The notes under the pieces: model-generated
The model's input: only the letters and a program-made list of their open reading frames with translations
Databases searched by the model: none
Told to the model about the DNA's origin: nothing
IMG/VR virus record: IMGVR_UViG_3300042887_004553
Span: 36-64,035 of that record
Direction: 5' to 3' (one strand)
DNA from: a virus
Taxonomy: Duplodnaviria; Caudoviricetes
DNA length: 64,000 nucleotides
Part shown: positions 9,933-32,458 of the stretch, in pieces
How the letters are laid out: each line of letters opens with the position of its first letter
Position numbering within the stretch: position 1 is the stretch's first letter
Translations under genes and position numbers: made by a program

Positions 9933-10727
9933 ATGATTTTTCTAGGAATAATTACTTGCAATAGATCGAAATTCTTTAAACAATGTTACGAATCTGTTAA
10001 AAATATCAAAAATTTAGATTTTTTGGCAGTTGTAAATGACGGTGAAGAGGACATTGATGTTGAAAAAAATGTGTTTTATGTTAAAAATAAAAAAAATATA
10101 GGAGTTGGTAAAAGTAAAAACATACTATTTAAAAAGGCCATAGAAGTAGGTGCCGATCATATTTTCATAATGGAAGATGATATAATAGTAAAAAATTCAG
10201 ATGTTTTCAGCGAATACATTAGAGCCAAAAACATAACAGGAATACAACATTTTTGCTTCGCATATCATGGACCAGCTAACAAGAATGGGATTTCTGGAGG
10301 AAAACCAGCACCTAAATTCATAATCGACTACGGTGACATTAAGTTATCTATCAATACTCACAGTGTTGGTGCATTCTGTTATTATTCTAAAGAAGTATTA
10401 AATAAAGTGGGTATAATCGACGAAAAGTTTGTAAATGCATTTGAGCACGTTGAGCACTCTTACAGAATAGCCAAAGCTGGATATACTACACCATATTGGA
10501 ATTGGTCTGATCTTGCCAATAGCACAAATTACTTAGATGAAATCGAATGTTCCGAGAAAAGCAGCACAATACGTCCAAGAAAAGATTGGCAGAAAAACAT
10601 TGAAAATGCCGCATTGTATTTTAAGGAAAAACATGGCGTTTTACCAGCATGGCAAAACTGTGTTCCAAACACATCCGAGGCAGATGTAAAGAATATAATG
10701 AAAGAAATCTTTAAGAAGAAGAAATAG
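9933..10727 (+). CDS. Glycosyltransferase family 2
   Basis: GIITCNR, VVNDG, NIGVGKSKN, FIMEDD, FEHVEHSYR motifs. Confidence 0.85.
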   Translation: MIFLGIITCNRSKFFKQCYESVKNIKNLDFLAVVNDGEEDIDVEKNVFYVKNKKNIGVGKSKNILFKKAIEVGADHIFIMEDDIIVKNSDVFSEYIRAKNITGIQHFCFAYHGPANKNGISGGKPAPKFIIDYGDIKLSINTHSVGAFCYYSKEVLNKVGIIDEKFVNAFEHVEHSYRIAKAGYTTPYWNWSDLANSTNYLDEIECSEKSSTIRPRKDWQKNIENAALYFKEKHGVLPAWQNCVPNTSEADVKNIMKEIFKKKK

Positions 10728-11622
10728 AACTACCCATCTTTTCAAAAGTATTGTTTTCTGGGTTTATCAACAATAAATTGTCCTTTTTATTTAGGAAGGA
10801 GTTGATTGAACCAGCAATTTTAGTCATTTGAGCACTATGAGTTCCAATTACATACTTACACTGTTTCAATATTTCAACATTTTTAACGAACGTTAAAGTC
10901 TCTTGTTCTTTTAATGATGGATTCCTTAAAACCATCTCAGCATTTGATACTGATTTATCACCATATCGCTTTTCGTCACTATCATATATAAAGTCATAAT
11001 TAGGATACTTGTTTTCAATTTCATATATATAATCCAAGTCATCGCTCGTTACAAAAATTTTCTTACCATCATAAAACTTTTCGACAGTTTCAAATAAGAA
11101 TGACTCCGATAGGTAAGGACTTTCGGTAATTTTATCACCTCTCCTCAAATGCAATGCTAATACATTTCCAAATGTATCAATTTCATATTTTTCTTTTATG
11201 AAACCGATCTGTTCATTGACTTTAGAGGTGTAGTTATCATTTAATTTAAAAAGATTGTATAAGAATCCTGAATAACTCAAATAATCGACCTCTTGCGGAT
11301 GCCAGCATTGATATTTTTGCATATTTGGACTATTCCAATATGCACCAAAATCAAAAAATACGGCAACATCTTCTGAGTCCGTAAAATTAAACTTACTTAT
11401 TTCATTAATGCCTTTTTCCTTTAAGGTATTTAAATTCACATCAAACGCTTTAAAGGGGTCATCATAAATATAAGATGTATATCTGAAAATGGGTATACGA
11501 TTGAAAGCATGAGCTATTTGCATTATTAACTTTCTTCTAGCATACATGGCCCCAAAACCACCCCATTCAATATCTCCTATAATATACTTTTCTAATTTAT
11601 TTGAAAAAATGTCGTAATTCAT
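10711..11622 (-). CDS. Alpha-1,6-fucosyltransferase-like (GT23/NodZ-FUT8 type)
   Basis: LALHLRRGDK, IFVTSDD and VIGTHSAQM motifs. Confidence 0.7.
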   Translation of the reverse strand: MNYDIFSNKLEKYIIGDIEWGGFGAMYARRKLIMQIAHAFNRIPIFRYTSYIYDDPFKAFDVNLNTLKEKGINEISKFNFTDSEDVAVFFDFGAYWNSPNMQKYQCWHPQEVDYLSYSGFLYNLFKLNDNYTSKVNEQIGFIKEKYEIDTFGNVLALHLRRGDKITESPYLSESFLFETVEKFYDGKKIFVTSDDLDYIYEIENKYPNYDFIYDSDEKRYGDKSVSNAEMVLRNPSLKEQETLTFVKNVEILKQCKYVIGTHSAQMTKIAGSINSFLNKKDNLLLINPENNTFEKMGSSISSS

Positions 11623-11631
11623 TGTACTAAT

Positions 11632-11659
11632 ATTTTAGTTTTCAACACATCGATGTCAA
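11632..11659 (-). promoter_or_regulatory. Sigma70-type promoter
   Basis: TTGACA-N16-TAAAAT-N9-ATG on the minus strand. Confidence 0.7.
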
Positions 11660-11695
11660 TTTGATTTTTATAATATAATAAATAAATAAAAAAAT

Positions 11696-12364
11696 ATGAG
11701 TTTTATTGAAGAATGTACTGGAGCATGTGATTGGGATAATTTAATTTTGAGCAGATTTCAAGAATTTGTTCCAGAAAATAGTATTGTCGTTGATATCGGA
11801 GCTAATCATGGCATTTTTTCATTTGGTATAAATGAAAAGATGCAAATAAAAGAGATATATGCAATAGAACCAGATTTGGAAAATTTTAATATTTTAAAAT
11901 CTAAAACAAGTCATGATTCGAATATTAAATTGATCAATGCCGCAATTTCAGATAAAAATGGTAAAGTTGATATATACGAAGGTAATGGTGACCATGCAAC
12001 TAGAAACATTCTTGGAAATGACTCTTTGAACACCAATTTTACGATAAAACACATCAAAAGAGGAACAGTTGATTGTGCAACATTGGATTTTATTTTTTTA
12101 GAAAAATTAAAAATTCAACCAAATGCATGTAAAATAGATACTGAAGGAGCTGAAACATTGGTTCTTAGAGGTGCTAAGAATTTAATTGAAAAAATGGATT
12201 GTCTTTTTGTAGAAATACACAACGAAACAACATATAAAGAAGTTATAGAAATGTGTTTTGAAAATAAGTGGGAAGTTAGATGTTTAAAAAATCTACACAA
12301 GATAACAACACTGGATGAATTGGATTATTGTTATCAGATTATAATTCACCCACAAGGTCTATGA
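11696..12364 (+). CDS. FkbM-family SAM methyltransferase
   Basis: VVDIGANHGIFS, AIEPD, KIDTEGAE motifs. Confidence 0.9.
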   Translation: MSFIEECTGACDWDNLILSRFQEFVPENSIVVDIGANHGIFSFGINEKMQIKEIYAIEPDLENFNILKSKTSHDSNIKLINAAISDKNGKVDIYEGNGDHATRNILGNDSLNTNFTIKHIKRGTVDCATLDFIFLEKLKIQPNACKIDTEGAETLVLRGAKNLIEKMDCLFVEIHNETTYKEVIEMCFENKWEVRCLKNLHKITTLDELDYCYQIIIHPQGL

Positions 12365-13226
12365 TTTTAGATGTGACTTTATCTAAGGTGAAATATTGAT
12401 TATATATTTCCCTACCTTTTCTTACCATAGATTGAATATCTTCTTCTGTTTTAGATAGAAGAATGTCTTTTAATTTATCAATATCATCTACATTTAATAC
12501 GATTGCGAAATCGTTGTAATTTATTTCATTGGAAAATGGTAAATATGGCTCATTGTCGTAAACGTAAACTGGAATAGAACCCATTTGCAATGCCTCATAA
12601 AAACGATAGCTCTGTTTACCGTAACCTCTAGCACATATGGTGAAGATTGATTTTTTAATGATATCGACATAGGATTCAAACTCTGTTTTATTGACATCAT
12701 ACTTCCAAGTTTTAGATGACACATAAAAAACATTGTGTTTTTGACAATATTCTACAACTTTCTCCCTAACAGAGTGAGTATTAGATGCGACGAAACTACA
12801 GAGTATGTTCTTTTTTGATTCAGATAAGACGCTAGAAGGCATCTTAGAACAGATTAAAGGTATGGGGATGCCCTTGGCGTAATTTCCCCCCGCTGAGTAT
12901 ACGTCTATGTCTAGAAAATCAACATTTTCCATGGGAGCATCATCATGTTGACAGACTGTGAAATATTTTTTATCTTTCGGTATAGTATTTAAATAACATT
13001 TAATTACTGGATTAACATATCCATGTATCCAATTTCTCTGATACATGTTGGTCCAAAAAATGGGTAGATAATATCTAGAATATTCTTTATCTAAACAATT
13101 TTTAATAAAGAAATCACAAAAAAATTCCTCAAGATATAGACCCTGATGATAACACGGATATGGTGTTAATGGATATTTTATTCTTAAGTACGTTGTATCA
13201 AATAGTATTTTTTCTTGAAATTTCAC
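12339..13226 (-). CDS. Exostosin-family glycosyltransferase (GT47)
   Basis: SIFTICARGYGKQSYRFYEALQMGSIPV...LPFSNEINY. Confidence 0.85.
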   Translation of the reverse strand: MKFQEKILFDTTYLRIKYPLTPYPCYHQGLYLEEFFCDFFIKNCLDKEYSRYYLPIFWTNMYQRNWIHGYVNPVIKCYLNTIPKDKKYFTVCQHDDAPMENVDFLDIDVYSAGGNYAKGIPIPLICSKMPSSVLSESKKNILCSFVASNTHSVREKVVEYCQKHNVFYVSSKTWKYDVNKTEFESYVDIIKKSIFTICARGYGKQSYRFYEALQMGSIPVYVYDNEPYLPFSNEINYNDFAIVLNVDDIDKLKDILLSKTEEDIQSMVRKGREIYNQYFTLDKVTSKIIDLVGEL

Positions 13227-13872
13227 TCTTTATATAATCTAATAATTTTAATTTGTTTTCGATCCCACCAACCCAATTACCATGATGCATCAATATCCCA
13301 CTGGGAATATTGTCATATTTTTCAAATCTCCAAAGATCATTCCCAGTATTATACGCTATAGTGTAATATTTGTCTTCGGGTAAAATTGACCAATTTAATT
13401 TATTTTTTAAATAATTAAATGCGTACTGATCGTGCTCAAAATAGTGTATGATCTTTAATGTGTCTTTGAAGACGTTTAAAGTTTTATCGTTACAATTTAT
13501 GATCATGAATCCAGCACATAAAATTACATTTTCTGGACATTTGGGAGTGTCATTCTGAGCATATATGTCTACCTTTTTATCATTATATTTAAAAATATCT
13601 TCTTCGAAACCCTCAAAGAATTGAACATCTACATCTGAATAAATTATAAACTCACCCATGTTATCTTCTATTGCCTTAATAACCATTCTGACCTTATCGG
13701 CCATAGTTTCACGGAAACCCTTTTCACCATATTCTCCTTTTTCGCCTATTTGTTCGCTTTCACATAAATGAAGTGAGAATTTTTTATTTTTATTAATTTC
13801 TCTATATGAAGGTAAAAAGAAACGATCAAAGAATACTTTATGTGATTTTGTAATTAAAGTGTATATTTTCAT
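13198..13872 (-). CDS. Nucleotide-diphospho-sugar transferase (GT77-like)
   Basis: IIYSDVDVQFF, CAGFMII, DQYAFN, HHGNW motifs. Confidence 0.8.
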   Translation of the reverse strand: MKIYTLITKSHKVFFDRFFLPSYREINKNKKFSLHLCESEQIGEKGEYGEKGFRETMADKVRMVIKAIEDNMGEFIIYSDVDVQFFEGFEEDIFKYNDKKVDIYAQNDTPKCPENVILCAGFMIINCNDKTLNVFKDTLKIIHYFEHDQYAFNYLKNKLNWSILPEDKYYTIAYNTGNDLWRFEKYDNIPSGILMHHGNWVGGIENKLKLLDYIKSEISRKNTI

Positions 13873-14780
13873 AATAAAGTTTCTATGTGTTTTGCAAAAG
13901 AACTAGAGGATAGGTATTTTAACCATAATTCTCTACATCTTTTCTGTCTTTCGATTAAATCATATTTAGCACAGTATTCCATTATTTTTTCTGGTAATTT
14001 ATCCAACTCATTTTCCTCAACAAATACTATTTCATTCTTATAATCTATTAAGTTTTCAAATGGTAAAACGCAATCTGTATTTACAAAAACAGGTATTCTA
14101 CCAAAACACATTGTTTCGTAAAAACGATAAGAAAAATTACCACAACCCCTGGGAGTTAAAATAAAAATGTTTTCTTGTAAATTTTTAAAAAATCTATCTC
14201 TTCCAGTTTTTTTATCTTCATATGGATTTTGAAAAAATGAAAAAATCTCATCATGATTGACTTTAATATTGGATTTCTTCAATATACTCAATGCTTCCTT
14301 TCGAATCGGTCTATTGCTGTCTCCACAAAATCCAACAGAGACATTATTGGAAAAGCCTTTAGAGTGCTGATTTATATCTGGTACAAAAACTGGAAAGGCG
14401 AATTCATTTGACTTTCTTTGAGAAGCATAAAATGATGTTCTAAAAAGAACAATATCGTCTGGAATATTATAATCTCCACCAAAATCATCATTATTTAAAC
14501 ATATTAACCTTTTACCATAGTGTCTAGATTTATCCAAAAGTTCAAGGAACCTATCTTCCTTTGAATCTTTAAATTTAAAAGGTAATGCGAAATAATCGCA
14601 ATTTACCTCATCAGCATATTCCAACCCTTCGATGTTGTCGAAAATACCAGATTCCCAAAAACGATTATCGTTTATGTGATTTTGAGCCTGTTGAGAAAGG
14701 AGAGGATATGTGAAAAAAAGTTCAGTGACTAATTCCAGATCCTCTCGTTTTACTTTAGTTTTATCTACGTAAATTTTCAT
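13869..14780 (-). CDS. Exostosin-family glycosyltransferase (GT47)
   Basis: FILTPRGCGNFSYRFYETMCFGRIPV...LPFENLIDY. Confidence 0.85.
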   Translation of the reverse strand: MKIYVDKTKVKREDLELVTELFFTYPLLSQQAQNHINDNRFWESGIFDNIEGLEYADEVNCDYFALPFKFKDSKEDRFLELLDKSRHYGKRLICLNNDDFGGDYNIPDDIVLFRTSFYASQRKSNEFAFPVFVPDINQHSKGFSNNVSVGFCGDSNRPIRKEALSILKKSNIKVNHDEIFSFFQNPYEDKKTGRDRFFKNLQENIFILTPRGCGNFSYRFYETMCFGRIPVFVNTDCVLPFENLIDYKNEIVFVEENELDKLPEKIMEYCAKYDLIERQKRCRELWLKYLSSSSFAKHIETLL

Positions 14781-15574
14781 ATGAAATATTTTTTTTCCAA
14801 TTCTTCTTCATTTGGGAAAGGTGTCCAATAATTAGCACCCTCTCTTTTCAAAAGCACTTCAAACAGATACTTGTGCCAAGTATCACAGTCTGGCTTATTG
14901 ATATTCCACAATAAATTTTTATTATAATCAAGCTCAGGTGATTGATGCGAGGAGATTTCTTCGTGCATTATATGAAAAAGCATAGGAGGCCATTTATTAC
15001 AAAAATCACAATTTCCATATTTTTTCATTTTTGTAGCATAATCCACATCCCAACCACTAATTGCATATATGTATTTTGGAAATTTATCTCTATGTTCTTT
15101 CCACCATTTTGTTTTAACAGCATATGCATCAAATCCAGCTATTTGATAATGTGAAATTTCTTTTGGTTGTTCATCTAAAGATTTTATATCACTTATAGCT
15201 AATCTAGCGGCACAATATGTATCGAAGTCTGTATTTAGGATATGTTTAATGAAACGATCAGATACAATGATATCTGAATTTACAAATATAAAAACATCAA
15301 TCTCATTTTTATCAGAATAATCACACAATGAATCGAACATATCGTTAATCATCGGTAAATCCCTCTTGCTACCATTAGTGTAATATGAACTTTTTTCCTT
15401 TAATACTGGGAGGAATGTTATGTTATCATCATGTTCCTTACATTTACTGTTAATGAAATCTAAATTTAACAATGTTAAATTAAACTGATCTTTCAATTTC
15501 AAAAGGCTTTTTTGAGATATTTTTATCCTTTCATTTAAGGGATAGTGTAAATTGAAACCTATTGCTATTTTCAC
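14777..15574 (-). CDS. Putative GT-A fold glycosyltransferase
   Basis: FIFVNSDIIV (DxD-like), GFDAY, FHIMHE; within GT operon. Confidence 0.6.
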   Translation of the reverse strand: MKIAIGFNLHYPLNERIKISQKSLLKLKDQFNLTLLNLDFINSKCKEHDDNITFLPVLKEKSSYYTNGSKRDLPMINDMFDSLCDYSDKNEIDVFIFVNSDIIVSDRFIKHILNTDFDTYCAARLAISDIKSLDEQPKEISHYQIAGFDAYAVKTKWWKEHRDKFPKYIYAISGWDVDYATKMKKYGNCDFCNKWPPMLFHIMHEEISSHQSPELDYNKNLLWNINKPDCDTWHKYLFEVLLKREGANYWTPFPNEEELEKKYFI

Positions 15575-15580
15575 AAGTAT

Positions 15581-15608
15581 ATCTTATCGACAAGTTTCTT
15601 TATTTCAA
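15581..15608 (-). promoter_or_regulatory. Sigma70-type promoter of the GT operon
   Basis: TTGAAA-N16-TAAGAT-N6-GTG on the minus strand. Confidence 0.6.
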
Positions 15609-16211
15609 ATTCAAAACGAAGAAATAATCATTATGTGTACCATCCCAATTTGGATTATTTTGTAGATTGAAATCCGTGACATTTTCAACGCAATCGTATC
15701 CTAAATTTTTCAAAAAAGTAAAAATATCATCCCTATCCTTTTCATATATCTCTATAAGCATATATTTTATTATTGTCTTTGTGAAATTTATACCCTTTAA
15801 AACATCAAATTCATATCCCTCAACATCTAATGATAAAAAATCAATATTATTATAACCAGATTCCTCGATTATTGACTGTAAGGTTCTAGCTGGAACTGTT
15901 ATTAATTCGTGTTTAACGCCTATGTCACTCAATCTAGTTCCTAAAATTGAAGACATTGGGTGTCCTGTGAAATCTCCTTGAATTGTGAGGTTTTTATATT
16001 CTGGTGAAACACATGCACAGTTAAAAATCTTATCATTGGGTCTATTAATCAAACAGGCATCATACCCTTTAGGTGACGGTTCAATCAATATGCCTTTCCA
16101 ATTTAGTTCATCTTGAAGACGTTTTGTATTTGACCAATGGTGTCCATCCAAAGCTCCTAATTCTATGTATATGCCATCCCTGTAATTTAATGTGTCCGTG
16201 TAAACTCCCAT
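15600..16211 (-). CDS. FkbM-family SAM methyltransferase
   Basis: YIELGALDG...WKGILIEP; LSLDVEGYE; TAAATA 7 nt upstream. Confidence 0.9.
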   Translation of the reverse strand: MGVYTDTLNYRDGIYIELGALDGHHWSNTKRLQDELNWKGILIEPSPKGYDACLINRPNDKIFNCACVSPEYKNLTIQGDFTGHPMSSILGTRLSDIGVKHELITVPARTLQSIIEESGYNNIDFLSLDVEGYEFDVLKGINFTKTIIKYMLIEIYEKDRDDIFTFLKNLGYDCVENVTDFNLQNNPNWDGTHNDYFFVLNLK

Positions 16212-16248
16212 GTTTTTTTATTTAATGTGTATTAAATAAAAAACAACT

Positions 16249-16866
16249 TTAAACACAACTTTCAATTAATTTGGCTTCGGACTCTCTTCTTTCAAGTAAA
16301 CCATCTAACCCTTTACCAATCCAAATGCGTTTCATATTACGGAATTCTTTTGCAATTTTTTTATAATCCTTTTTAGGTATTAAATTCTTAATATTCACCA
16401 TTTCTTTTCTAGACTCACCTTTAAGGCTAGTGCCTCTGTTAAATACTAAGGAAATAATAGCACCATATGCATCTGAATGTAAATCAGATAAACCTGGAAA
16501 TGTTTTTTCTGCAAGTTTTGTGAATTTAGGCCAAGTTAGTTTTTGAAAAATATCTAATGCCATATCCCAATCAACAGTAATTCCAGCTGATCTCAATTTT
16601 GAAGCATATTCTTTCCCTCTTTCTCCTGATTTTCCAGATGCCTCTTGTATTAATTTTATTTGTTCTTTTGGAAGAGATGTGAAAATTTCACTCAACTCTT
16701 TTTGAGAATAATACGCACAATCTACTCCAATTGCAATTGTAGGTCCAGAAGCACCTCCAGGCCAAGTAAATTTGGATAGATATTTTTCGTAATACGATTT
16801 GCCTCCACCAACTTCATACTGGAGTAATAGTTTTAATGTTTTATCAGATGGTTTAGATGAGTTCAT
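16249..16866 (-). CDS. Endolysin, lysozyme-fold (pesticin-like muramidase)
   Basis: YEVG...WPGGASGPTIAIGVD; SLVFNRG; GLLERRESEA; last gene of the lysis cassette. Confidence 0.8.
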   Translation of the reverse strand: MNSSKPSDKTLKLLLQYEVGGGKSYYEKYLSKFTWPGGASGPTIAIGVDCAYYSQKELSEIFTSLPKEQIKLIQEASGKSGERGKEYASKLRSAGITVDWDMALDIFQKLTWPKFTKLAEKTFPGLSDLHSDAYGAIISLVFNRGTSLKGESRKEMVNIKNLIPKKDYKKIAKEFRNMKRIWIGKGLDGLLERRESEAKLIESCV

Positions 16867-17284
16867 AGTCGTCTTCTTTAGCATTTGTATGAATAACTGT
16901 TATGTTTTCTGTCTTTTCCGTATGTGTTGTACCTTCCAATGCGGCACTAGATGAACTCCCGTATTTCAAATCCACCACCGCTTGAGCACCAACATAAGTT
17001 GCAATAATAACGGATAATATTTCAATTGTCTTAGAAAATATTGTCACAAAGCCGCTTATCATATCTGGAGCACCCTTTGGTATTAAAAACATTATACCAA
17101 TGCTAGAAAAATAAAAAAACGCAAGTATTATAACAGATGTCAACACTATATAGAATTTTTTGGATTCCATGTGATTTGTTGATTTTAATCTTTTATGATT
17201 TTGGGAAGACGTATTTGGAGGCACTTGATTACTGCTCAGATATGAAATTCCACCCATCACTGCATTTTTTATTAAAGCCATCAT
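16853..17284 (-). CDS. Putative holin (two transmembrane segments)
   Basis: Two hydrophobic helices and acidic tail; directly upstream of the endolysin. Confidence 0.55.
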   Translation of the reverse strand: MMALIKNAVMGGISYLSSNQVPPNTSSQNHKRLKSTNHMESKKFYIVLTSVIILAFFYFSSIGIMFLIPKGAPDMISGFVTIFSKTIEILSVIIATYVGAQAVVDLKYGSSSSAALEGTTHTEKTENITVIHTNAKEDDYELI

Positions 17285-17388
17285 AAAAATAGGCTAGTAA
17301 AAACAACTCCAGATAAAAAACCTATCGTAAAAACGATTTTTGTTGGGTGCTTCCAAAATAATTCAATAATTGTTTCATTTATATTCAT
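17281..17388 (-). CDS. 35-aa single-TM protein (absent from ORF track)
   Basis: MNINETIIELFWKHPTKIVFTIGFLSGVVFTSLFL*; overlaps both neighbours by 4 nt (ATGA coupling). Confidence 0.65.
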   Translation of the reverse strand: MNINETIIELFWKHPTKIVFTIGFLSGVVFTSLFL

Positions 17389-18002
17389 AATATTCCTTTA
17401 ATTCTTAAATATGTTGCTCCACCTATTGCTCCAAGTAACATTACTATAATGATATTTCTACGTAATATTGCAAGATCCTTCTCAACAAGTTTCTTCTGCA
17501 TAATATTTAAATCATTAATCATTTTATCTCTATTTTCCATTTGACGAATCAGTTCATTATCGACCAACTCTTTGGCTTCATATAACCCATCATTATCTCT
17601 TTGTATTTGAGCAAATGTTTCCTTATCTTTTAAAAGACGTTGATACTCTTCAGTGCTAACCACAACAACAGTATCGGATCTGTATTTTTCAGGAATGATT
17701 ACCATCCTTTGTTTATTAACAGGGATTGGATCATGTTTGCTACTAGAACCAATTGTTTCAATGTGTTGTTGAACACTTTTTTGATATATTGATTCTATTT
17801 TTATTCTATTTTTTGGAGGTCTGACTAATCTTGTTGTTTCTGTAACATATTTGTCTGCTAAATCGATCCTAGCGGCTTCCATAGAATCTTTAGAGGCATA
17901 CACGACCTTAGATAATGCCTCAGATTGTTTTTCTGTATATATTGTACATGAAGATGTAAATATGCACAAAATTGTAAAAAACAAGTAACGCAATTTATTC
18001 AT
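17385..18002 (-). CDS. Putative unimolecular spanin (lipoprotein with C-terminal TM)
   Basis: Signal MNKLRYLFFTILCIFTSS-C (lipobox-like); coiled coil; C-terminal IIIVMLLGAIGGATYL followed by RIK. Confidence 0.65.
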   Translation of the reverse strand: MNKLRYLFFTILCIFTSSCTIYTEKQSEALSKVVYASKDSMEAARIDLADKYVTETTRLVRPPKNRIKIESIYQKSVQQHIETIGSSSKHDPIPVNKQRMVIIPEKYRSDTVVVVSTEEYQRLLKDKETFAQIQRDNDGLYEAKELVDNELIRQMENRDKMINDLNIMQKKLVEKDLAILRRNIIIVMLLGAIGGATYLRIKGIL

Positions 18003-18007
18003 ATAAC

Positions 18008-18693: not shown

Positions 18694-18913
18694 GTTTTTT
18701 TCGCTTTTTACCTTCAGGCCATTTAATTAAAATTGGTTGATTTCCTGTTGGTGCAAATCCAGAAACACCAGCACCCTTAAATCCAGATGGTAAAACTCCT
18801 TGGCTGTTTATGTTTGTGGAAGGTACAGGGGCTTGTCTTCCTTGAACAGCCTTAGCCCTTGGATACACATTATGTCCTTCAAGGATTTTTAATATTTCAT
18901 CATCAAATCTCAT
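18665..18913 (-). CDS. Small basic protein with capsid-targeting-like leader (start moved to MRFDD)
   Basis: MRFDDEILKILE-G; TGATG overlap with the upstream gene. Confidence 0.65.
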   Translation of the reverse strand: MRFDDEILKILEGHNVYPRAKAVQGRQAPVPSTNINSQGVLPSGFKGAGVSGFAPTGNQPILIKWPEGKKRKKLKKKKDFSS

Positions 18914-20067
18914 CAAAAAGCCTTTATACACTTTGTAACAACAGCACTAGGTTGTATAATATTTACTGGTTTACCCAACGGACCAGAATTTAAACCATCA
19001 ATTGATCCATCATCTGTGGTTCTAATATCTAAACCGAAATTTCCAACATTTGGTAACAGGGATGAATTACCAGAAGCGCCTCCAGCAACCACTGATTCTA
19101 AAGTATGAGTATGTGATGGTATATTTTCCTTTTTAAGAATGGAGTTTTCATCACCACCGACAGCGCCAACATAATTATCCAATGTGTTGGTTTTTATGCC
19201 CCCTGAACCAATCGTTGTTTTTCTACGAAGGTCTGGAACGTTAAATTTTGGAGCAACTCCCCCCCAGTTATTCCCAATAACATTGAATAATTCTGGGTAT
19301 TCTGAAGCTGAAAATGATTGACCATCACAAGATAAAAAACCAGTTGGTGGGGTGATTCCAGCAAAATCGATTATCGTTCCTATGGGGATACCAAAAACCT
19401 GATTACTATTGACCAATAGAGGGGATAATACATCAGCCAAATCTTGTAAATTTATATTTTCAACTGAACCATAAATGCCTAAATTGCCTTTAATATGGTT
19501 TCCTGGCATATCATCCAACATTTCATTGGTGACTCCTCTATCATTTATTTTCAATTTACCTAGAGCATCAAAACCCAATCCTCCAATTGTTGAAGTATCC
19601 GTTAATCTTATTTTAGATTGATCGATTGGATCTTTTTCCAAACCTCTACCCACAATATTATCCGTCAAATATGTTGCATCTAAACTTTTAAGCTTTACGG
19701 ATATACCACTTGTTTGGCTTAAAACAGTTGTCATGTTATCTGCTGTAAAATTTCTAGTTATTTTAGCATATGACTCTATATTTAAAGTATTTATACCAGT
19801 TAATGTATATAAGTTATTTGTTGTATTATCAAATACCATATCTCCACGATATGCTGAAACAATTCCACTTGAATTTGTAAATAAATTAAAATTGGCAAAT
19901 CCTAAAAACTTATTAGATATAACATTTCCACCATAAGTTACACCATCTCCTATAAAAAGCCTCTCATAATCCGATACATACATAGGTTCACCTGAAGAAT
20001 ATACAACATTTTCCCTCTGTCTTTCAACACCTGTACGTAAAATTATCTTGGTAAATTTATCTGCCAT
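18913..20067 (-). CDS. Tail collar-domain fibre protein (short-tail-fibre-like; start moved to MADKF)
   Basis: N-terminal KIILRTG...GEP...RLFIGDG; IPIGTIIDFAG...GFLSCDGQ...YPELFNVIG tail collar; TATAAATA 5 nt upstream. Confidence 0.85.
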   Translation of the reverse strand: MADKFTKIILRTGVERQRENVVYSSGEPMYVSDYERLFIGDGVTYGGNVISNKFLGFANFNLFTNSSGIVSAYRGDMVFDNTTNNLYTLTGINTLNIESYAKITRNFTADNMTTVLSQTSGISVKLKSLDATYLTDNIVGRGLEKDPIDQSKIRLTDTSTIGGLGFDALGKLKINDRGVTNEMLDDMPGNHIKGNLGIYGSVENINLQDLADVLSPLLVNSNQVFGIPIGTIIDFAGITPPTGFLSCDGQSFSASEYPELFNVIGNNWGGVAPKFNVPDLRRKTTIGSGGIKTNTLDNYVGAVGGDENSILKKENIPSHTHTLESVVAGGASGNSSLLPNVGNFGLDIRTTDDGSIDGLNSGPLGKPVNIIQPSAVVTKCIKAF

Positions 20068-20119
20068 AGGAATATTTATATTGGACGCTGTAAATAACAC
20101 TCAAGATGTTATTAAAATA

Positions 20120-21619: not shown

Positions 21620-21621
21620 TT

Positions 21622-21789
21622 ATGGATCATTTTAAATCGGATAAAACTGCGGATGAATTAGCATCATCTTATAGAAGTGCAATGCATGAAACGATCGAAG
21701 AATGTTTGAAAAAAATAAAATATCTTGAAGAACAGCTTGATATTATAGACGAAGTTATTAAAGAATTAAAATTAAAAAATATTATATGA
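21622..21789 (+). CDS. 55-aa predicted helical protein between nrdB and nrdA (absent from ORF track)
   Basis: MDHFKSDKTADELASSYRSAMHETIEECLKKIKYLEEQLDIIDEVIKELKLKNII*; ATGA overlap with nrdA. Confidence 0.7.
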   Translation: MDHFKSDKTADELASSYRSAMHETIEECLKKIKYLEEQLDIIDEVIKELKLKNII

Positions 21790-24715: not shown

Positions 24716-24743
24716 TTGACATGTGAACTTATTCTGTTAATAT
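24716..24743 (+). promoter_or_regulatory. Sigma70-type promoter with extended -10
   Basis: TTGACA-N16-TAATAT with TGn directly before the -10. Confidence 0.7.
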
Positions 24744-24760
24744 TAATGGAATATCTTCAT

Positions 24761-25810
24761 ATGATACACAACAAAAAAGCAAAAGCACTGGAATTGAAAA
24801 CAAAAGGTTACACAGCATGTGAAGCCGCACATAAATTGAATATTCCAAAATCAACTGTTTGGGATTGGTTTAATCCTAAGAGTAAGAATGAATATCCAGT
24901 TTCTTATGTTAATGATAATTTAACTGAACAAAGAAATTCCAGAAAAGAAAGTCTCGATATTGAAGATTTCCTATCCCAATTAGCTCCAATTGAAATCGAT
25001 AAGCCAGTTATCAGAAAAACAGCTAAAAATCCATCGGATTACGTTGTTATCATGAATGATTTGCATTTTCCTATGCAATGTCAGAAATCAATCGACATTG
25101 CTCTCGCTGTAATTGATGAACTCAAACCAAAAAGTATTATTTTAAATGGAGATACTATGGATATGTTAGCAATTTCAAGATATCCAAAAGATATTAGAAC
25201 ATCATTCAATCTTTTAACTGAGAGAATTGAGTATCATAAGTTTTTAAATTCTTTGATTGAAGTTTCCGAAGGTGCTGAAATCATTGAAACTCACGGTAAT
25301 CACAGCGGAGATTCAACATTTGGCCGTTGGTGGAGATATTTGAGTGATAGAATTGGTGAATTGGCATGTCTTCCAGAAATTAAAGAGACATTGAGTTATG
25401 AAAATGTATTTTTGGGTGAATATCAAGAATATGTAACAATGGCTGATTATGTTGAACTCAATAAAGATCTTGTGGTTTTACATGGTGAGGTTGTTAGAAA
25501 ACATGGTGGAATGTCAGCTAGAGGTAATTTGGAAAAATACTTCCAATCTTCAATCATAGGCCACACCCATAGGGTTGGATCGACAGCACAAAGAATTCCA
25601 GGAATTGGAAGAAAGAAAGAGAAGCAAATTTATGCATGGGAGCTAGGCTGTATGTGTGACTTGAACCCCTTGTACGGGTCGGCTCCAAACTGGCAAAATG
25701 CTTTTGGAATTGTATCAATTGGTGAAGATGATAGTTTTTCTGTAGAAACGGTTATGATTAATGATGGGACTGCTAATATTTCTACACTCGGTAAGAGTAT
25801 TTCTGTTTAA
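24761..25810 (+). CDS. HTH + calcineurin-like metallophosphoesterase (start 24746 or 24761)
   Basis: EAAHKLNIPKSTVWDW HTH; MNDLHFP, LNGDTMD, GNH, LHG, GHTHR motifs. Confidence 0.85.
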   Translation: MIHNKKAKALELKTKGYTACEAAHKLNIPKSTVWDWFNPKSKNEYPVSYVNDNLTEQRNSRKESLDIEDFLSQLAPIEIDKPVIRKTAKNPSDYVVIMNDLHFPMQCQKSIDIALAVIDELKPKSIILNGDTMDMLAISRYPKDIRTSFNLLTERIEYHKFLNSLIEVSEGAEIIETHGNHSGDSTFGRWWRYLSDRIGELACLPEIKETLSYENVFLGEYQEYVTMADYVELNKDLVVLHGEVVRKHGGMSARGNLEKYFQSSIIGHTHRVGSTAQRIPGIGRKKEKQIYAWELGCMCDLNPLYGSAPNWQNAFGIVSIGEDDSFSVETVMINDGTANISTLGKSISV

Positions 25811-25850
25811 ATTCATTAAAGAACTGCCATATTATTAACTAAATAATAAT

Positions 25851-27860
25851 ATGGCAGTTCAAACAGCAGAATACTTAAAAGAGCGTTTTCAAGATTTAAA
25901 AAGACCAATAGGTACTGAATTTTCAGACCTAATTGACTCGTGTCACAATAGTTCCGTTTCTGGGAATGTTACCGTTTTTGGTAGCGTTACAGCGAACGAT
26001 GTTTCGGTATTAAATGATGTTATTATGGCCGCTGATAATGGAGCCAAATTCAGAATTACCATATCTGATGTTGGTGAAATTTTAACAACCCCTCTGGTTG
26101 CATTAAGCCCGACTCCTACCCCCACATGTAGCGTTACTCCAACATGTACACCAACAGTAACCCCCACATTAACTCCAACATCAACCCCAACAGTAACCCC
26201 AACAAACACAGTAACTCCTACAGTTACTCCAACAAATACAGTCACTCCAACAAATACGCCTACTGGAACTCCAACAGTTACTCCAACAAATACAGTAACC
26301 CCAACAAACACAGTAACTCCTACAGTTACTCCAACAAATACAGTCACTCCAACAAATACGCCTACTGGAACTCCAACAGTTACTCCAACAAACACAGTAA
26401 CTCCTACAGTTACTCCAACAAATACAGTCACTCCAACAAATACAGTAACCCCAACAAACACAGTAACTCCTACAGTTACTCCAACAAATACGCCTACTGG
26501 AACTCCAACAAGTACACCTACTCCAACCCCTACCCCAACTCCAACTTATATACCACCTGCTTCAATTCCCCTCGCTCTTTTCGAAACGATAAATGTAGAA
26601 GATTCAATAACAGATCTCAGTAGTATTAATGAATATCAAATAACAGTTGACGATGCTGTTTATAGATTCAGTTTATTAGTTGATGGTATTAGTGGTGTGG
26701 ATTTTACAAATATATATGATATTAATGATTTTAATAATTGTAAATTAATTATATCTACAACTAATTCAATTTCCTCAAATAAATCGGAAATTTTTGTCAA
26801 TGAAAGTTGCACATTATCTACAATAAATGATGATTTCTTCACTTTTTATTATTATACAACTGGTTCGGTTGTTGCTAAATTTAGAAAGAAGCTCAAAAAT
26901 GCACCATCTGTGAGTTCTTTCGATTTATGTAACTATGGTGATATCTGTGTAACTATAAATGATTCTAATTTAGGAACCGAGGTTATAGAAACCTTTAACC
27001 ATGATGGTAAACCTATGGCATATTATGAAAATTGGGGGTATGATCAACCCGATAGTTATACTTCACCCAACGGAAGATTTCAATTGCAAAGAGTTCCACA
27101 GGGAAGTTGGGATGAAAGTGGAATTGATGGAGGATATCGTTGGTGGTTTTTTTACACAAACAGTTACACCTCATATCAACTAACATCGCAATTATTTGCT
27201 ACTTTTGATGAAGCGAAATGTCCATTAACAGTAGATTTTGGTGGAAATTGTAATTATAGAGTAGTGTATAAATTGGATCCTGATGGTTGGTACAGATTCC
27301 CAGGATTAAACTACAATGCATTCCAAATTTCTGTTAAAGAAAACGCTTGCCCAGTTACTCCTACCCCAACACCGAGTGTAACGCCAACTAATACGATAAC
27401 ACCTACTCCTACACAAACTGAAAACCTAACACCAACACCTACTCCTACACCAACCGAAACTCCTACACAATATCTACAGCTTTGTGGGTTAAGTTCAGTA
27501 TGTGTAACTATATCTGGAGCTAATGGTTCTTATCTCAATGAATTACCAACTACATATGTTAATTCCACAAGTAGTTACTATATTAATCATCCATCCGTTG
27601 TTCAAGTATATGATGTTGCTGGTTGGGGTAGTGATTGGCCTCTAGTTCTAAAAGCTGATCCTCTTAGTGGTTATCGTTGGCAATGGTTCTTTGGCGAAGG
27701 CATATTCTTAACACAATGGTTTTATTATCCAGTATGCCCAACATCCGTAGATAACGGTGGTCTTTGTGTTTATGAATTAAATACAGGTAGCACTGATTGG
27801 CCTTGGTTAAGCGCACAATATAATGGAAGCACATTGAGCGTTAAAGCTGGTGATTGTTAA
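25851..27860 (+). CDS. Virion appendage-like protein with mucin-like Thr/Pro repeats and a duplicated Cys-containing domain
   Basis: TAAATA 5 nt upstream; N-terminal LKERFQ...[12 protein letters not shown] anchor; about 150 aa of TPT repeats; two homologous domains. Confidence 0.8.
26110..26560 (+). repeat. Coding TPT(N/V)T tandem repeats including an exact 102-nt duplication
   Basis: 26190-26291 is repeated at 26292-26393. Confidence 0.9.
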
Positions 27861-29533
27861 GATTCTTTTCTCAAATCCATAGAATAGTGTTCAAATCTAT
27901 TATGACTTATTGGACTGCTCAATAAAATTGCTGGTTTGATATTCCCAGATATGGTTTGTTGATAGATATAAGACATCCAAGTTTGCTCAAAAGGTCTTGT
28001 CCACTTATCAGTTAAGAACATTTTACGATTTCCATACTTGGAAACGATTTGAGGCCAATTGCAATAATAAATTTCTCCATCAGCAAAAGGAATGCCGTTA
28101 TATGATTTTATATTGTTGAATTTTGTCTTAGGTGCATTCGGATCTAATCCAGAGATAGGTAAATTTGGTTTATCTGGCCAATTTTTAACCCTAAAAGACT
28201 GAGGCACATTATACCAAGCCCATTGAGTCGAGTTATCACCGTAAAATTCTGTAAATGATAATTTCAAAAAGTCATAATTATTTTTCTTAATTATATTTAA
28301 AGTGTTATAATAGAAATTATCCAAATAAACCGAAAAACCATTTTTACAAGGGTGAATCCATTTTGAATTTAAAAACATATCATCTTCAAAGAAGAAATAA
28401 AAATCGAAATTATTTTCATCTGCATGCTCTGCAATAAATTGTCTACCACCACATATTCCTAGATTTTCTTTCTTGATATGATTAAAATTATGTTCTTCAC
28501 ATATCCTAGCATATTCATCAAATGTGGATTCATCTGTTGAATTATCCAATAAGAATTTTCTAGGTTTCGCAATAAAACATGTATCATAAAGAGACATTGA
28601 TTCAATTAATGTTTCAAATTGCTTTGGACTATTAAATGATATAACATATAATGCTGTATTATTCATATCCAAATCATTATCCGTATTTAAAGTCGATGAT
28701 TCCGATTTAATAGTCAACTTATCGTCTTTTAGATTTTCGAAAAAAGTACTCATCAGTCCATTAGATTCTATCTCAAAATAATTGATAATATCGGAGTGTT
28801 TATAACACATCGCAGAAAAGATGGATTCCTCTGTTCCCATATAACCATCATTTAATGTTGTTAATAGTAAATCATAGTACAGTGCGCTTATTGGGGATAT
28901 ACTTTCCTTCAAACCCCCAAAAAAACCTCCTCTAGCTACTTTACTGACCTTAGAATTGGCTATTTGATTTAACTTGCTATATTCAAATCCATGAATTTCA
29001 GTTTCTGCATCATAAGGAAAACATACAAATGAGAAATTCTTAATGTATTTTGGTAATTTATTTAAAACTTTATCATGTGTAAAATAACCATAGTGTACTG
29101 TATTCGTGATTCCAGCATCTATCCAAAACATATGCTCTGAATTAAATGTGTCCATTATTTTAGCATCATTTAATAAAAACATCTTTGACATGACAAGAGG
29201 GTTGTACATCTCTAGTTTGGATTGAGTTGAGTCAATGAGCCAACCAGATAAATTATGCCAATCTGGATTTGTTCTTATTTTTTGAATTTGTTGATAATAT
29301 TCGTTATTTTTAAACCAATTCAAATCTCTCAATATGAATTGAGTATTGTTTTTATTTCTTTCAGAAAATACAATTTTTTCTAATTCAGCATCTCCGAAAA
29401 TAATCATATTTTCTTCTACTTTTAAAAGTTCTTTAAATTTTTCAATATAATGTTCAAAGGAACGCGACCAACCCTCCTTCAAATCACCTCTTCCAATATC
29501 CCATAAACCAGTAACCAATGTTATATTATTCAT
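27857..29533 (-). CDS. HtrL/YibB-like domain fused to a GT-A (GT2-like) domain
   Basis: [30 protein letters not shown]; C-terminal NLGICGGR and FFFEDD. Confidence 0.75.
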
Positions 29534-30396
29534 AATTTAAAGTAATCATCTGTCCATATTTTACTATCATATCCATCGAAGTAACATTCTTTCACCCAAT
29601 TGGGATCATCTATATCCACATAATAATCATCTGAGAGATCAATCCAAGGTCTAGCATTCCATAATTTATCTATATCCAGCTTTGAAGAAAAATCTTCAAC
29701 ATTAACATCTTCATTTTCTATTAAAGATAAAGGCTGTAAATTGAAAATGCCCACAGATTCGAAATGATCATAGAATTTCACATCATCTCCTGCTAATTTA
29801 TCTGAAACCCTCATCCAAGATGCTTTTATACCATACGAATGAGCACAAATTATACCATGTAGACAAGTTGATACTATTTTTTCACATTCATTGACTTGAT
29901 CAATAAATTTTTCTATTTTAGATACGTTAGTGTTTGGATCAATTATTACTGTATTCTTAAATTCATCTTTATTGTTATTAACATAATTTGATACAAAAGT
30001 GTAATCGACAATATGTGGTATTATTCCCAATTTATATTTTTTTTCTATATTTTCTTTTTTATATATTCTTGAAAGTAACATTGCTGGATCTCCAAGCGCA
30101 ACATTCGAAATATCTATACCATGTTCTTTCAATTTATCCAAAGTCCTATAACCTCTCACGGCTTTGTATATTGAATTTTTTAATGGTACAGTCTTATTAT
30201 CCATAATCCCAGTACCCCACACAATTGTATTTTTTCTGTTGCCGACACCTAAAATAGACCCAGTCATCAAAATTTTATTTTCTACCGTATGATGTGTAAA
30301 AATGAAAGGAATGTTTAGTTTTTTCAACATATAAGGAACACTTGTGTCTCCAAAATTGCTAAAAGGTACAAAGTTTACTTTTAATCGTTTATCCAT
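29530..30396 (-). CDS. Polysaccharide pyruvyl transferase
   Basis: NFGD, GSIL, WGTG, AVRGYRT, GDPAMLL, GIIPH, STCLHGIICAHSYG. Confidence 0.85.
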   Translation of the reverse strand: MDKRLKVNFVPFSNFGDTSVPYMLKKLNIPFIFTHHTVENKILMTGSILGVGNRKNTIVWGTGIMDNKTVPLKNSIYKAVRGYRTLDKLKEHGIDISNVALGDPAMLLSRIYKKENIEKKYKLGIIPHIVDYTFVSNYVNNNKDEFKNTVIIDPNTNVSKIEKFIDQVNECEKIVSTCLHGIICAHSYGIKASWMRVSDKLAGDDVKFYDHFESVGIFNLQPLSLIENEDVNVEDFSSKLDIDKLWNARPWIDLSDDYYVDIDDPNWVKECYFDGYDSKIWTDDYFKL

Positions 30397-30413
30397 ATGA
30401 AATGTCTTTCTTT

Positions 30414-31214
30414 TTATACTCTCAAATAATCAGATAAATTATTGTTGAATAATTTATCAACGTTATCATTTCTCCACAAATTACAACCACTTTTACTGGA
30501 ATTATTTGAAGCGTGTCTTATTACAGGGAAAGATTCAACTACACCATATTTTCTCCATTCATCTTGATCTTTATGTTTAGGTATATACGGTGTATGCGCT
30601 ACTATTTTTTTTATTTCTTTCATTCCCATATAAGCAGAAACCAATTCATCATCAGCCCATCCCTGCATTATATAATTTTCATCAAAATCACTCTCAAACA
30701 TTTTTCTAATATATGAAACCGATTTATAATGTTCCAATATACCAACTCTAACATTCTCGTTAACAGATATCACAAATCTATCTCTAGCATCTTTGAATTT
30801 TTCTCCAATATTATTTAAACCAGCAAATCCTATTGCGGTTTTATCGTCATTTATTTCTCTCAAACGAACATGTTCCTCTATGAGACGAGATTCATATACG
30901 AGATCATCATCGACAGTTATTATTATTTGTTCAGGATCATTTATCCTTTTTATTGTTGGATATATTTTCGTAATTGAACCATAATCTTCTGTTCTAAAAA
31001 TTTTCAATACGCTTTTTTTACTAATATCATCAAGCCATGTTGGTATAATATACTCTCTGTTATTCTTTTTATTGATATGAGGTATATTAAAATGTATTTT
31101 ATAATTTTTATATGTTTGATTTAAGAGAGAAAATATTACGCTCTGTAATCCCATTGGGTTTTCAGATTCCAATCTTTCTGGAATGGTTGTTAATGTTACA
31201 ATTACATTTTTCAT
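30414..31214 (-). CDS. GT-A fold glycosyltransferase
   Basis: VTLTTIPERL, EDYGSITK, ITVDDDLVY, DDELVS. Confidence 0.8.
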   Translation of the reverse strand: MKNVIVTLTTIPERLESENPMGLQSVIFSLLNQTYKNYKIHFNIPHINKKNNREYIIPTWLDDISKKSVLKIFRTEDYGSITKIYPTIKRINDPEQIIITVDDDLVYESRLIEEHVRLREINDDKTAIGFAGLNNIGEKFKDARDRFVISVNENVRVGILEHYKSVSYIRKMFESDFDENYIMQGWADDELVSAYMGMKEIKKIVAHTPYIPKHKDQDEWRKYGVVESFPVIRHASNNSSKSGCNLWRNDNVDKLFNNNLSDYLRV

Positions 31215-32458
31215 AAGGTCCCAGTGATTTTTTCACACCAATCCTTAGATTCACTATGAGGCCAAACAACCCAATACTTTGGATTCTTGGTGGTCTGAAA
31301 TTCTCTCCAAATCTTACAATATTTATCTGGATCATTCAACATTCCTTGTATTTCAACTCTATCCGCATCTTTTCTGTAAATAGTCTCATCATTTTCATCA
31401 TGGAATGCTACAACCCAAAAGTCGTAATCACTCTCTGGAACCTGACTATATCCAACATCGATACAATGTTTGAAGATTTTAGCAAATTCTTTCTTCCAAT
31501 TTTCTTCTCCACCCAATTCTTCAATAGATGGATTTGGTGGATATTTTTTATCTAAAGTATATTGCTGCACTGACCTATCTGAGAACATTAATCCAGCATA
31601 TTCCTCATAATCACGCAATGTCCTAGTAGTACCGAAGCCATATTTCCCATCATGACCTTCTTGTTTTTCACCATCCATACCAAACAATTTTCTGTTTGTT
31701 AAATGCGAATGAGTGTTTTTATTTCCCCAGTCCTTATCATCATCCCATTGTTTAGTTCTACCCTTCCTAGTGTATTCGTGCCAAATAACTACCTTATGTG
31801 GGTGAAATAAATCATAGCCATGAGTATATGCTCTAACTGCTATGGATATTTCTTCTCCATGAAAGTAATACTCTGGATTATGCTGAACTTCATTTGAAAA
31901 CTCACCTAATGTGAAACACAAATGGGCTGAATAAAATCTAGCGGGAACAGGTGCATCCAATTTTTCCGAATCGGGCATATCTTCTGGAAGGAAAAAGACA
32001 GCACCTTCTGGAATAAATCTGTCAAATGCCATTCTCCAAGGTTTTTGTATTCTTTCTGCTGGATCATTTTCTGGATTGAATGATGGGGCATATGTTGTCA
32101 ATAATGGTTTTTTATATCCTTTAGATTGCAACTGTTCAATCATATTGATAAGAGTTTCGTCCCAATTTGGAGCGAAACGCATATGAGAATCTATTTGCAA
32201 AGTATATTTTTCATCAGAATATAGTTGCTGTATCTTATTTCTAGCCCAACATGTACCTTTACTTTCGTTATATGGTACATCTATGATTTTAAATCTAGAA
32301 TCACTTTTAAATTCATCCATACTAGCATCATCATCACTATGTTGCCAACAAATACCAAATACTAATTTTTCTGGATTTTTTGCATTTTTAATGCAATCTT
32401 TGACGGTCAATATTAGTTGTGAATCACGATAAGAGGCTATTTGAATAAATATTTCCAT
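31211..32458 (-). CDS. GT60-like (Skp1-hydroxyproline GlcNAc-transferase / polypeptide HexNAc transferase)
   Basis: IFIQIASYRD, GTCWARN, LQIDSHMRF..NWD, YFHGEEIS...RAYTHGYDLFHP. Confidence 0.85.
   Translation of the reverse strand: MEIFIQIASYRDSQLILTVKDCIKNAKNPEKLVFGICWQHSDDDASMDEFKSDSRFKIIDVPYNESKGTCWARNKIQQLYSDEKYTLQIDSHMRFAPNWDETLINMIEQLQSKGYKKPLLTTYAPSFNPENDPAERIQKPWRMAFDRFIPEGAVFFLPEDMPDSEKLDAPVPARFYSAHLCFTLGEFSNEVQHNPEYYFHGEEISIAVRAYTHGYDLFHPHKVVIWHEYTRKGRTKQWDDDKDWGNKNTHSHLTNRKLFGMDGEKQEGHDGKYGFGTTRTLRDYEEYAGLMFSDRSVQQYTLDKKYPPNPSIEELGGEENWKKEFAKIFKHCIDVGYSQVPESDYDFWVVAFHDENDETIYRKDADRVEIQGMLNDPDKYCKIWREFQTTKNPKYWVVWPHSESKDWCEKITGTL

Follow-up and report, generated by a model that had tools for sequence, protein, structure and literature searches.

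A portable gene module with a GT60-like enzyme in a lake phage as a candidate pathway for O-glycosylation of the phage's own Thr/Pro-repeat proteins

Glycosyltransferase (GT) families GT27 and GT60 both O-glycosylate Ser and Thr residues of polypeptides, and a DxH motif instead of DxD is specific to the two (PMC7185993). In protists, GT60 enzymes start mucin-type glycans by transferring N-acetylglucosamine (GlcNAc) onto Thr (PMC8724618; PMC3769586). Glycosylation of virions by phage-encoded enzymes has so far been documented for mycobacteriophages and merely suggested for the jumbo phage XacN1. In the mycobacteriophages Che8, Corndog and Myrna, phage glycosyltransferases and a methyltransferase act in the cytoplasm of the host to O-glycosylate structural proteins of the phages themselves (Freeman et al. 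2023, as cited in PMC12619734 and PMC12363180). Here we describe a stretch of 64,000 nucleotides (nt; hereafter the window), positions 36 to 64,035 of the IMG/VR record IMGVR_UViG_3300042887_004553, which spans almost the whole 64,035-bp contig of an uncultured lake phage. We propose, with a probability of roughly 0.6, that the four genes at 27857-32458 form a portable protein O-glycosylation module targeting the phage's own Thr/Pro-repeat proteins. Since phage virion glycosylation is known in mycobacteriophages and has been suggested for XacN1, the module would be a new variant rather than a new kind.

The giant viruses PBCV-1 and mimivirus, which infect eukaryotes, resemble the proposed module in having virus-encoded, cytoplasmic virion glycosylation that does not depend on the endoplasmic reticulum or Golgi, with eukaryote-like GT families and methyltransferases; the PBCV-1 glycans are N-linked on the capsid protein, and no pairing of GT60 with Thr/Pro proteins is known to have been described there. 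In the mycobacteriophages, according to the papers that cite the work, capsid and tail-tube subunits accept the sugars at their C-termini and the enzyme families differ from those of the window, where the candidate acceptors are separate Thr/Pro-repeat proteins. A mycobacteriophage-type trait of the window is the placing of glycan open reading frames (ORFs) with structural genes, in an operon behind fibre genes and with late-type boxes. XacN1 (Yoshikawa et al. 2018, PMC5852040) has the module in common with the window, its cassette holding a carbamoyltransferase instead of a pyruvyltransferase. Its authors suggested phage glycosyltransferases, with the GT60 enzyme, its partner enzyme, the cassette and the link to TP repeats unrecognised (PMC5852040). 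Our literature searches, which covered GT60/PF11397 or HtrL in phages and the O-glycosylation of phage fibres rich in Thr, turned up no account of the module.

The initial annotation of the window had counted twelve glycan enzymes in two clusters, at 9933-16211 and 27857-32458. Both clusters are present, and ten of the twelve ORFs have family support from Pfam, PHROGs and one language-model look-up. The remaining two, which had been labelled as further GT-A enzymes, match no Pfam (E up to 10) or PHROG family (Table 1), and the label "GT77-like" could not be upheld, there being no GT77 Pfam match in any of the twelve ORFs, three of which were checked to E 10. The real unit is smaller than twelve genes: it is a conserved bracket, with a GT60-like gene at one end, a tandem glycosyltransferase with an HtrL-like domain (HtrL-GT) at the other and a swappable cassette between them. 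The four module genes of the window overlap or abut. Across 82 related loci, an HtrL-GT homolog lies downstream of GT60 on the same strand in 77, some 1.5-10 kb away, and the genes between the brackets fall into 49 clusters and about 31 architectures. In one lake contig, both bracket genes are 86-87% identical to those of the window but enclose an unrelated middle.

Table 1. Features of the window, module and candidate acceptors first
Feature	Coordinates	Strand	Basis or remark
GT60-like glycosyltransferase	31211..32458	-	PF11397, 226.9 bits against a cut-off of 21, E 6.6e-67
Probable GT2-like GT-A transferase, cassette gene 1	30414..31214	-	language-model (Atlas) score 0.99
Polysaccharide pyruvyltransferase-like, cassette gene 2	29530..30396	-	PF04230 (PS_pyruv_trans) 2.2e-9, above cut-off
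HtrL-like + GT-A tandem glycosyltransferase (HtrL-GT)	27857..29533	-	PF09612 (HtrL_YibB) 5e-18, residues 3-251
Thr/Pro-repeat protein, candidate acceptor	25851..27860	+	translation; repeats of 102-nt period, 3 copies
Second Thr/Pro-repeat protein, candidate acceptor	63111..64000	+	cut by window end; 30-residue window 83% T/S/P
Two giant fibre-like genes, 1202 and 1353 residues	32504..40187	-	directly upstream of GT60, same strand
GT-A (GT2/GT25-like) glycosyltransferase	9933..10727	+	phrog_2456 1.5e-26; Pfam GT2 20.4 bits, below cut-off
FUT8-like (GT23-like) enzyme	10711..11622	-	PF19745 (FUT8_N_cat) 5e-9
FkbM methyltransferase	11696..12364	+	PF05050 6.8e-16; TAAATA boxes
GT47 exostosin-like / RXYLT1_C-like enzyme	12339..13226	-	PF03016 1.1e-17, PF24785 1.4e-12
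ORF without Pfam or PHROG family	13198..13872	-	Pfam to E 10, PHROGs
GT47 exostosin-like enzyme	13869..14780	-	PF03016 3.6e-12
ORF without Pfam or PHROG family	14777..15574	-	Pfam to E 10, PHROGs
FkbM methyltransferase, at the head of the minus-strand run from 16211 to 12339	15600..16211	-	PF05050 5e-19; TAAATA box at -13
Sheath	42428-45694		myovirus segment of window
TerL	46333-48081		window
Major head protein	50711-52276		window

The GT60-like assignment stands: the protein is a true PF11397 member with a DxH motif and a fold nearest to the mucin-initiating polypeptide transferases. An alignment of 45 sequences shows D90-S91-H92 conserved to at least 90% and an invariant H227. A sequence search against PDB chains gave no match, and structures were therefore compared. 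The AlphaFold2 (AF2) model (pLDDT 95.9) has a catalytic GT-A domain at about residues 1-295 and a C-terminal beta-rich domain at about residues 320-415. The 29 best structural matches were all GT27 polypeptide N-acetylgalactosamine transferases (ppGalNAc-Ts), with Z 19-22 and a root-mean-square deviation (rmsd) of 3.2-3.8 over about 270 residues (VIA-align), while generic GT-A folds reached Z 18 or less. We propose that the GT60-like enzyme is an initiating polypeptide N-acetylhexosamine (HexNAc) transferase.

With the protist GT60 enzymes, namely the mucin pp-alphaGlcNAcT of T. cruzi, the pp-alphaGlcNAcT of Dictyostelium and Gnt1, which acts on Skp1 hydroxyproline, the phage enzyme has in common PF11397, the DxH motif and a GT-A fold near that of GT27. 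As for the T. cruzi enzyme, Thr-rich mucin-like tracts are its presumed acceptor (PMC3769586), and as for Gnt1, it is predicted to be cytoplasmic and soluble. In contrast to the protist enzymes, it has an extra C-terminal domain of about 115 residues, conserved in phages and bacteria, and is paired with the HtrL-GT tandem and a swappable cassette, without a consistent prolyl hydroxylase partner. Among animal GT27 enzymes, GalNAc-T2 (2ffu) and T10 (2d7i) match best in structure, with Z about 22 and an rmsd of 3.2-3.5 over about 270 residues, and have the same DxH metal site; their initiation on Ser and Thr of Pro-rich mucin domains is the likeness to the role proposed here. The phage enzyme is, however, only 10-16% identical to them, is not a GT27 by sequence and shows no ricin-type lectin match: residues beyond about 330 were not aligned to a lectin domain in the listed structural matches. 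Members of the GT60 family lack a C-terminal ricin-type lectin domain (PMC8724618). A further difference from animal GT27 is the absence of a membrane anchor, which points to the cytoplasm rather than the Golgi.

Neither a transmembrane segment nor a signal peptide is present in any of the twelve glycan ORF products or in the two Thr/Pro proteins. The eukaryotic families that the twelve proteins resemble are Golgi membrane enzymes; because the phage proteins have no such segments, the twelve predicted-soluble enzymes would act in the cytoplasm.

The Thr/Pro protein that is encoded next to the module, described as mucin-like at the outset, is real. An N-terminal domain of about 90 residues is followed by about 150 residues of TPT-x repeats and by two Cys-containing domains with a second TP linker between them. 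The end of its gene overlaps the end of the convergent HtrL-GT gene. A homolog search with residues 1-95 was empty, and a language-model and structure look-up with the C-terminal domains gave nothing above chance. The second Thr/Pro protein has a weak PHROG tail-fibre match (6.8e-6). Thr/Pro proteins just upstream of GT60 in relatives (L013-L080) in many cases start with one of a few domains of about 60 residues, e.g. MACSKYTLTNTG..., MAIGIRILS.NLSGQT... and MAYQNINQYNYRK..., which recur on proteins of 90 to 2200 residues. These domains look like a modular anchor family, with TP linkers leading to variable distal parts.

The association between GT60 and such proteins was measured in both directions. 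An ORF was counted as Thr/Pro-rich if T, S and P made up 60% or more of a 30-residue window that contained 6 or more Pro. Of the 63 loci in which 3 kb or more of sequence precedes GT60, 52 have such an ORF within three genes upstream of GT60, against 31 of 1114 (2.8%) for other ORFs. More than 60 sequence clusters are represented among the upstream ORFs; the GT60 link thus survives turnover of the partner genes. In the reverse direction, IMG/VR contigs were chosen only for encoding (TP)6, and controls were chosen by a random 14-mer: PF11397 was found in 8 of 44 (TP)6 contigs and in none of 49 controls (Fisher p=0.002). Restricted to (TP)6 contigs of at least 50 kb, the count is 7 of 16, and in six of the eight positive contigs the repeat lies no more than 5 kb from GT60. 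At least four flanking contexts, plus bacteria, stand behind the association. Co-occurrence of GT60 with TPT-repeat genes, which the initial annotation had named as a check, is thus strongly positive across phages both forward and in reverse, and weaker in bacteria. Since unrelated phages and bacteria show this pairing too, the phage probably adds sugars to fibre-like proteins of its own.

The association also bears on a different explanation, in which the module and the first cluster would remodel the lipopolysaccharide (LPS), capsule or exopolysaccharide of the host, blocking superinfection or aiding release, with the Thr/Pro genes as mere neighbours in a variable region. HtrL_YibB, WcbI, GT25, GT10 and pyruvyl/FkbM enzymes are indeed typical of bacterial polysaccharide loci, conserved flanks around a variable middle resemble O-antigen and capsule loci, and PHROGs classes such glycosyltransferases as morons. 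We nevertheless consider a host-envelope target unlikely. It leaves unexplained a Thr/Pro link that holds on unrelated backbones and in the reverse test; the family and fold of the initiating enzyme are known for polypeptide acceptors; five relatives have no phosphoglycosyl transferase; and none of the twelve enzymes spans a membrane. These are, moreover, lytic-type myoviruses, and the genes have late-type boxes.

At the other end of the bracket, the HtrL-GT has a second GT-A domain, with an EDD motif at residues 383-385, and its AF2 model (pLDDT 87.6) is a tandem of two GT-A domains. The best fold matches are all two-domain enzymes (LH3, mimivirus R699, LARGE1, K4CP, COLGALT1 and PmHS2), with TM-scores of 0.22-0.30, so low that the matches of this model would show architecture only. 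LARGE1, K4CP and PmHS2 are bifunctional polymerases, and one may ask whether the module builds a free or primer-bound polysaccharide, the HtrL-GT serving as a LARGE/K4CP-like co-polymerase and the product being released or deposited on the cell or particle. A parallel for such a product is the hyaluronan or chitin that chloroviruses make on infected cells, and the cassettes of relatives carry nucleotide-sugar genes. The TM-scores, however, reflect only the tandem GT-A layout, and three protein glycosyltransferases, LH3, R699 and COLGALT1, match equally well. The window showed no exporter and no membrane enzyme of the synthase type, and the Thr/Pro association would again go unexplained. Polysaccharide synthesis as the function of the module is therefore, in our judgement, improbable.

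The cassette is variable. In the window it consists of two genes. The first is probably GT2-like, judging from the language-model look-up; the phage clusters that it matches carry PF00535 in 15-28%, its own Pfam GT2 score is only 15 bits, and homologs occur in just 3 of the 82 related loci. Among the same 82 loci no homolog of the pyruvyltransferase was found. Cassettes of relatives include GT25, GT10 fucosyltransferases, GT2, a PLOD-type GT, FkbM and a carbamoyltransferase. In G004, a 295-kb relative that is 98% complete, GT60 and HtrL-GT are 17.5 kb apart and the cassette comprises 20 genes, including a nucleotidyltransferase, an epimerase/dehydratase, WcbI, GT61 and a Fringe-like GT. The initial annotation held that host donors alone would be used. 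A scan of window ORFs, which was not exhaustive, turned up no nucleotide-sugar gene and so agrees with this for the ORFs scanned, but nucleotidyltransferase and epimerase genes do occur in relatives' cassettes.

Relatives of the GT60-like protein are numerous: 443 were found in IMG/VR at about 68-81% identity, full-length homologs at 46-49% identity occur in the jumbo phages XacN1, Xoo-sp13, CM1 and RAS14, and a representative library gave more than 4,600 clusters at 50% identity. Three of the library matches (P0123, P0124 and P0127) are proteins of 1600-2460 residues with up to four tandem GT60-like domains. The module is found on different backbones. G004 has only 11 of the 65 window genes in common and a TerL that is 23% identical, whereas its GT60 is 72% and its HtrL-GT 63% identical to those of the window, with a Thr/Pro protein directly upstream. 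Judging from these sequence comparisons, the module moves as a unit between phage backbones. A side observation in G004 is a Thr/Pro-rich ORF of 140 residues directly downstream of a major-head-protein homolog (104655-105077; L089:4655-5077), which could be a capsid-associated acceptor. In G004-type phages, a protein of 456 residues that joins a long extension to an Fe/Mn superoxide dismutase domain is conserved near the module, in 38 loci (L023:19743-21113 and homologs).

GT60 relatives also occur in bacteria, in the genomes of at least 568 species, among them Acidobacteriota, Gemmatimonadota, Verrucomicrobiota, Bacteroidota and Burkholderiales. In 27 of 71 scored bacterial loci, GT60 has an HtrL-GT homolog no more than 8 kb away, often directly adjacent, and the two are fused in two loci. 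This adjacency and fusion indicate that both bracket enzymes work in one pathway. The fused genes, single ORFs that match both GT60-like and HtrL-GT proteins, are L381:7998-10111 from a metagenome-assembled genome (MAG) of Vicinamibacterales and L406:17-3649 from a Myxococcales MAG, and look like natural fusions. One Gemmatimonadaceae locus has the order Thr/Pro protein, GT60, HtrL-GT. The Thr/Pro protein encoded directly upstream of GT60 in a Gemmatimonadaceae MAG (L349:7218-7943) has a structured N-terminus of about 100 residues, a hydrophobic stretch and a 130-residue Ala/Thr/Pro/Ser tail, and is a possible bacterial substrate unlike phage fibres in type. On two long contigs in Saprospiraceae/Lewinellaceae bins (L341, 230 kb; L344, 610 kb), GT60 homologs of 60-72% identity have adjacent HtrL-GT and Thr/Pro/Ser-rich ORFs; these contigs are either a hint of a Bacteroidota host or phage contigs mis-binned into MAGs.

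XacN1 is a cultured phage with the module. Its GT60 homolog is ORF334 (48% identity), and its HtrL-GT homolog is ORF330 (41%). As in the window, the module is convergent with a gene for a Thr/Pro-linker protein, here of 3313 residues and encoded beside baseplate-wedge genes, at whose C-terminus small Cys-containing domains are linked by TPTPTP. XacN1 virions show at least two glycoprotein bands stained by the Schiff (PAS) reaction, and the authors proposed ORF328 and ORF334 as their makers (PMC5852040).

Expression signals in the window are consistent with a late role. A TAAATA box stands 11-17 nt before the start codon of 30 of the 65 window genes, against about 1.5 expected by chance, and is found on virtually every structural gene that can be recognised, the sheath, tube, TerL and fibre genes among them, for example at 45701-45708, 36123-36130 and 25835-25840. 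Both Thr/Pro genes have the box at -11, like the tube and sheath genes, and it also precedes both giant fibre genes and the first gene of the minus-strand run of the first cluster. GT60 starts 45 nt behind the fibre gene on the same strand, and no terminator-like site was found between the fibre gene (32504) and GT60 (32458). This arrangement would fit late co-expression of the module with the structural genes. By virtue of the late-type boxes, the weak tail-fibre PHROG match and the analogy with XacN1, we would place the Thr/Pro proteins in the virion.

The surroundings of the module in XacN1, where it adjoins DNA polymerase, RNase H and Nudix genes, and the DNA polymerase next to it in most relatives, call to mind yet another function, glycosylation of the phage DNA, in which multi-sugar hypermodified hydroxymethyl-pyrimidines would evade restriction. 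Phages with multi-GT hypermodification of DNA are known (Pyle 2024, as cited in PMC12619734), and the second domain of the HtrL-GT has a weak match to TAGT (TET-associated GT) at 18.8 bits, below the cut-off. Even so, we regard this as highly improbable. G004, though 98% complete, has no hydroxymethylase of the thymidylate-synthase family in a search whose controls were positive, and no gene for making hydroxymethyl-pyrimidines was found among the window ORFs scanned. The absence of a Tet_JBP match in G004 is a weak argument, the search control having been silent as well. The nearest structural relatives are polypeptide transferases, and the Thr/Pro association is left unexplained by a DNA target.

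The reading that we prefer, O-glycosylation of the phage's own Thr/Pro-repeat proteins, can be put as a pathway whose acceptor, sugar and order of steps we infer. In the host cytoplasm, the soluble GT60-like enzyme would attach the initial HexNAc to Thr of the TPT-x repeats, probably as GlcNAc taken from UDP-GlcNAc of the host, with the two Thr/Pro proteins of the window as its likely targets. Cassette enzymes, here the GT2-like transferase and the pyruvyltransferase, would then extend and decorate the chain, and the two-domain HtrL-GT would add one or two more sugars or a repeating unit. The outcome would be a lineage-specific glycan on the extended linkers of fibre-like appendages, which may stiffen and protect the linkers and alter surface recognition; a swap of the middle cassette would change the glycan. 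More tentatively, GT60 and HtrL-GT could be the core of a widespread, so far undescribed mucin-type O-glycosylation system of prokaryotes and phages that acts on Pro/Thr linkers in the cytoplasm. Phages would carry it between unrelated genomes along with its substrates, and the swapped cassettes would lend their appendages serotype-like and strain-specific glycans, a "glycocalyx", the HtrL-GT perhaps laying down, in the manner of LARGE1, a repeating disaccharide on the chain primed by GT60.

If the proposal is correct, mucin-type O-glycosylation, regarded as eukaryotic, would be common in lake phages and many bacterial phyla, and the Pro/Thr linkers of phage fibres would be glycan carriers, not plain spacers. 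Through the swappable cassette, phage surfaces would diversify along a new axis, with possible effects on host range, particle stability and recognition by grazers or defences. The module is directly testable, as the cultured XacN1 carries it and has deposited virion proteomics data.

Several points weigh against this proposal. The stained proteins of XacN1 were not identified by its authors, and the non-repeat domains of the Thr/Pro proteins match nothing informative. The 80 viral loci are interrelated, so that the counts are not independent events, and proximity could reflect a shared variable region for host interaction. Only about 30% of bacterial GT60 loci have a nearby Thr/Pro ORF, mostly within three genes. 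GT60 itself has only an ATAAAT variant of the late box, and in XacN1 and most relatives the module adjoins, often in the same orientation, a family-B DNA polymerase gene, a placement more in keeping with a function that is early or linked to replication than with a late one.

Other acceptors were considered. The initial annotation had envisaged a glycan coat on the virion at large. A mucin-like tract is absent from the major head protein, both tube proteins, the sheath and both giant fibres, and the first three kinds of protein have no Ser/Thr-rich tail either; capsid, tail and giant fibres were accordingly set aside as acceptors for lack of such a tract. A hydroxyproline acceptor, as in Skp1, is unlikely, the complete XacN1 having no oxygenase of the prolyl 4-hydroxylase (P4H) type and such oxygenases lying far from the module in G004.

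The first cluster lies apart from the bracketed unit. It was found in only one near-identical relative, never beside GT60, and in viral contigs its GT47 gene likewise occurs only in one near-identical relative; the single line of initiation, extension and capping that had been envisaged for the two clusters is thus not supported. We see the first cluster as a second, lineage-specific set of glycan enzymes, which may elaborate the glycan of the module or build another. Several of its family matches cover only the C-terminal part of the profile. The FUT8-like protein scores 35.9 bits against a cut-off of 27.6 and matches only profile positions 342-476 of 499. For the two GT47 exostosin-like enzymes, the PF03016 cut-off is 33.4 bits: the one that is also RXYLT1_C-like scores 64.7 bits over profile positions 156-290 of 293 only, and the other 46.7 bits over positions 200-291 of 293 only.

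The rest of the window is that of an AT-rich myovirus (about 33% GC). Two tube genes accompany the sheath gene in the myovirus segment, and the giant fibre gene at 36126-40187 matches the tail fibre family phrog_17885 (2.8e-19). A megablast of 27857-36112 against cultured phages matched nothing, and the sole relative found in one metagenome scan was 5.8 kb long. Between the two glycan clusters lie a protein with a tail-collar-fibre domain and many PHROG tail matches and lysis-like genes (18913-20100 and 16249-18002), and the window also encodes ribonucleotide reductase subunits (20648-23435) and a metallophosphoesterase (24716-25810).

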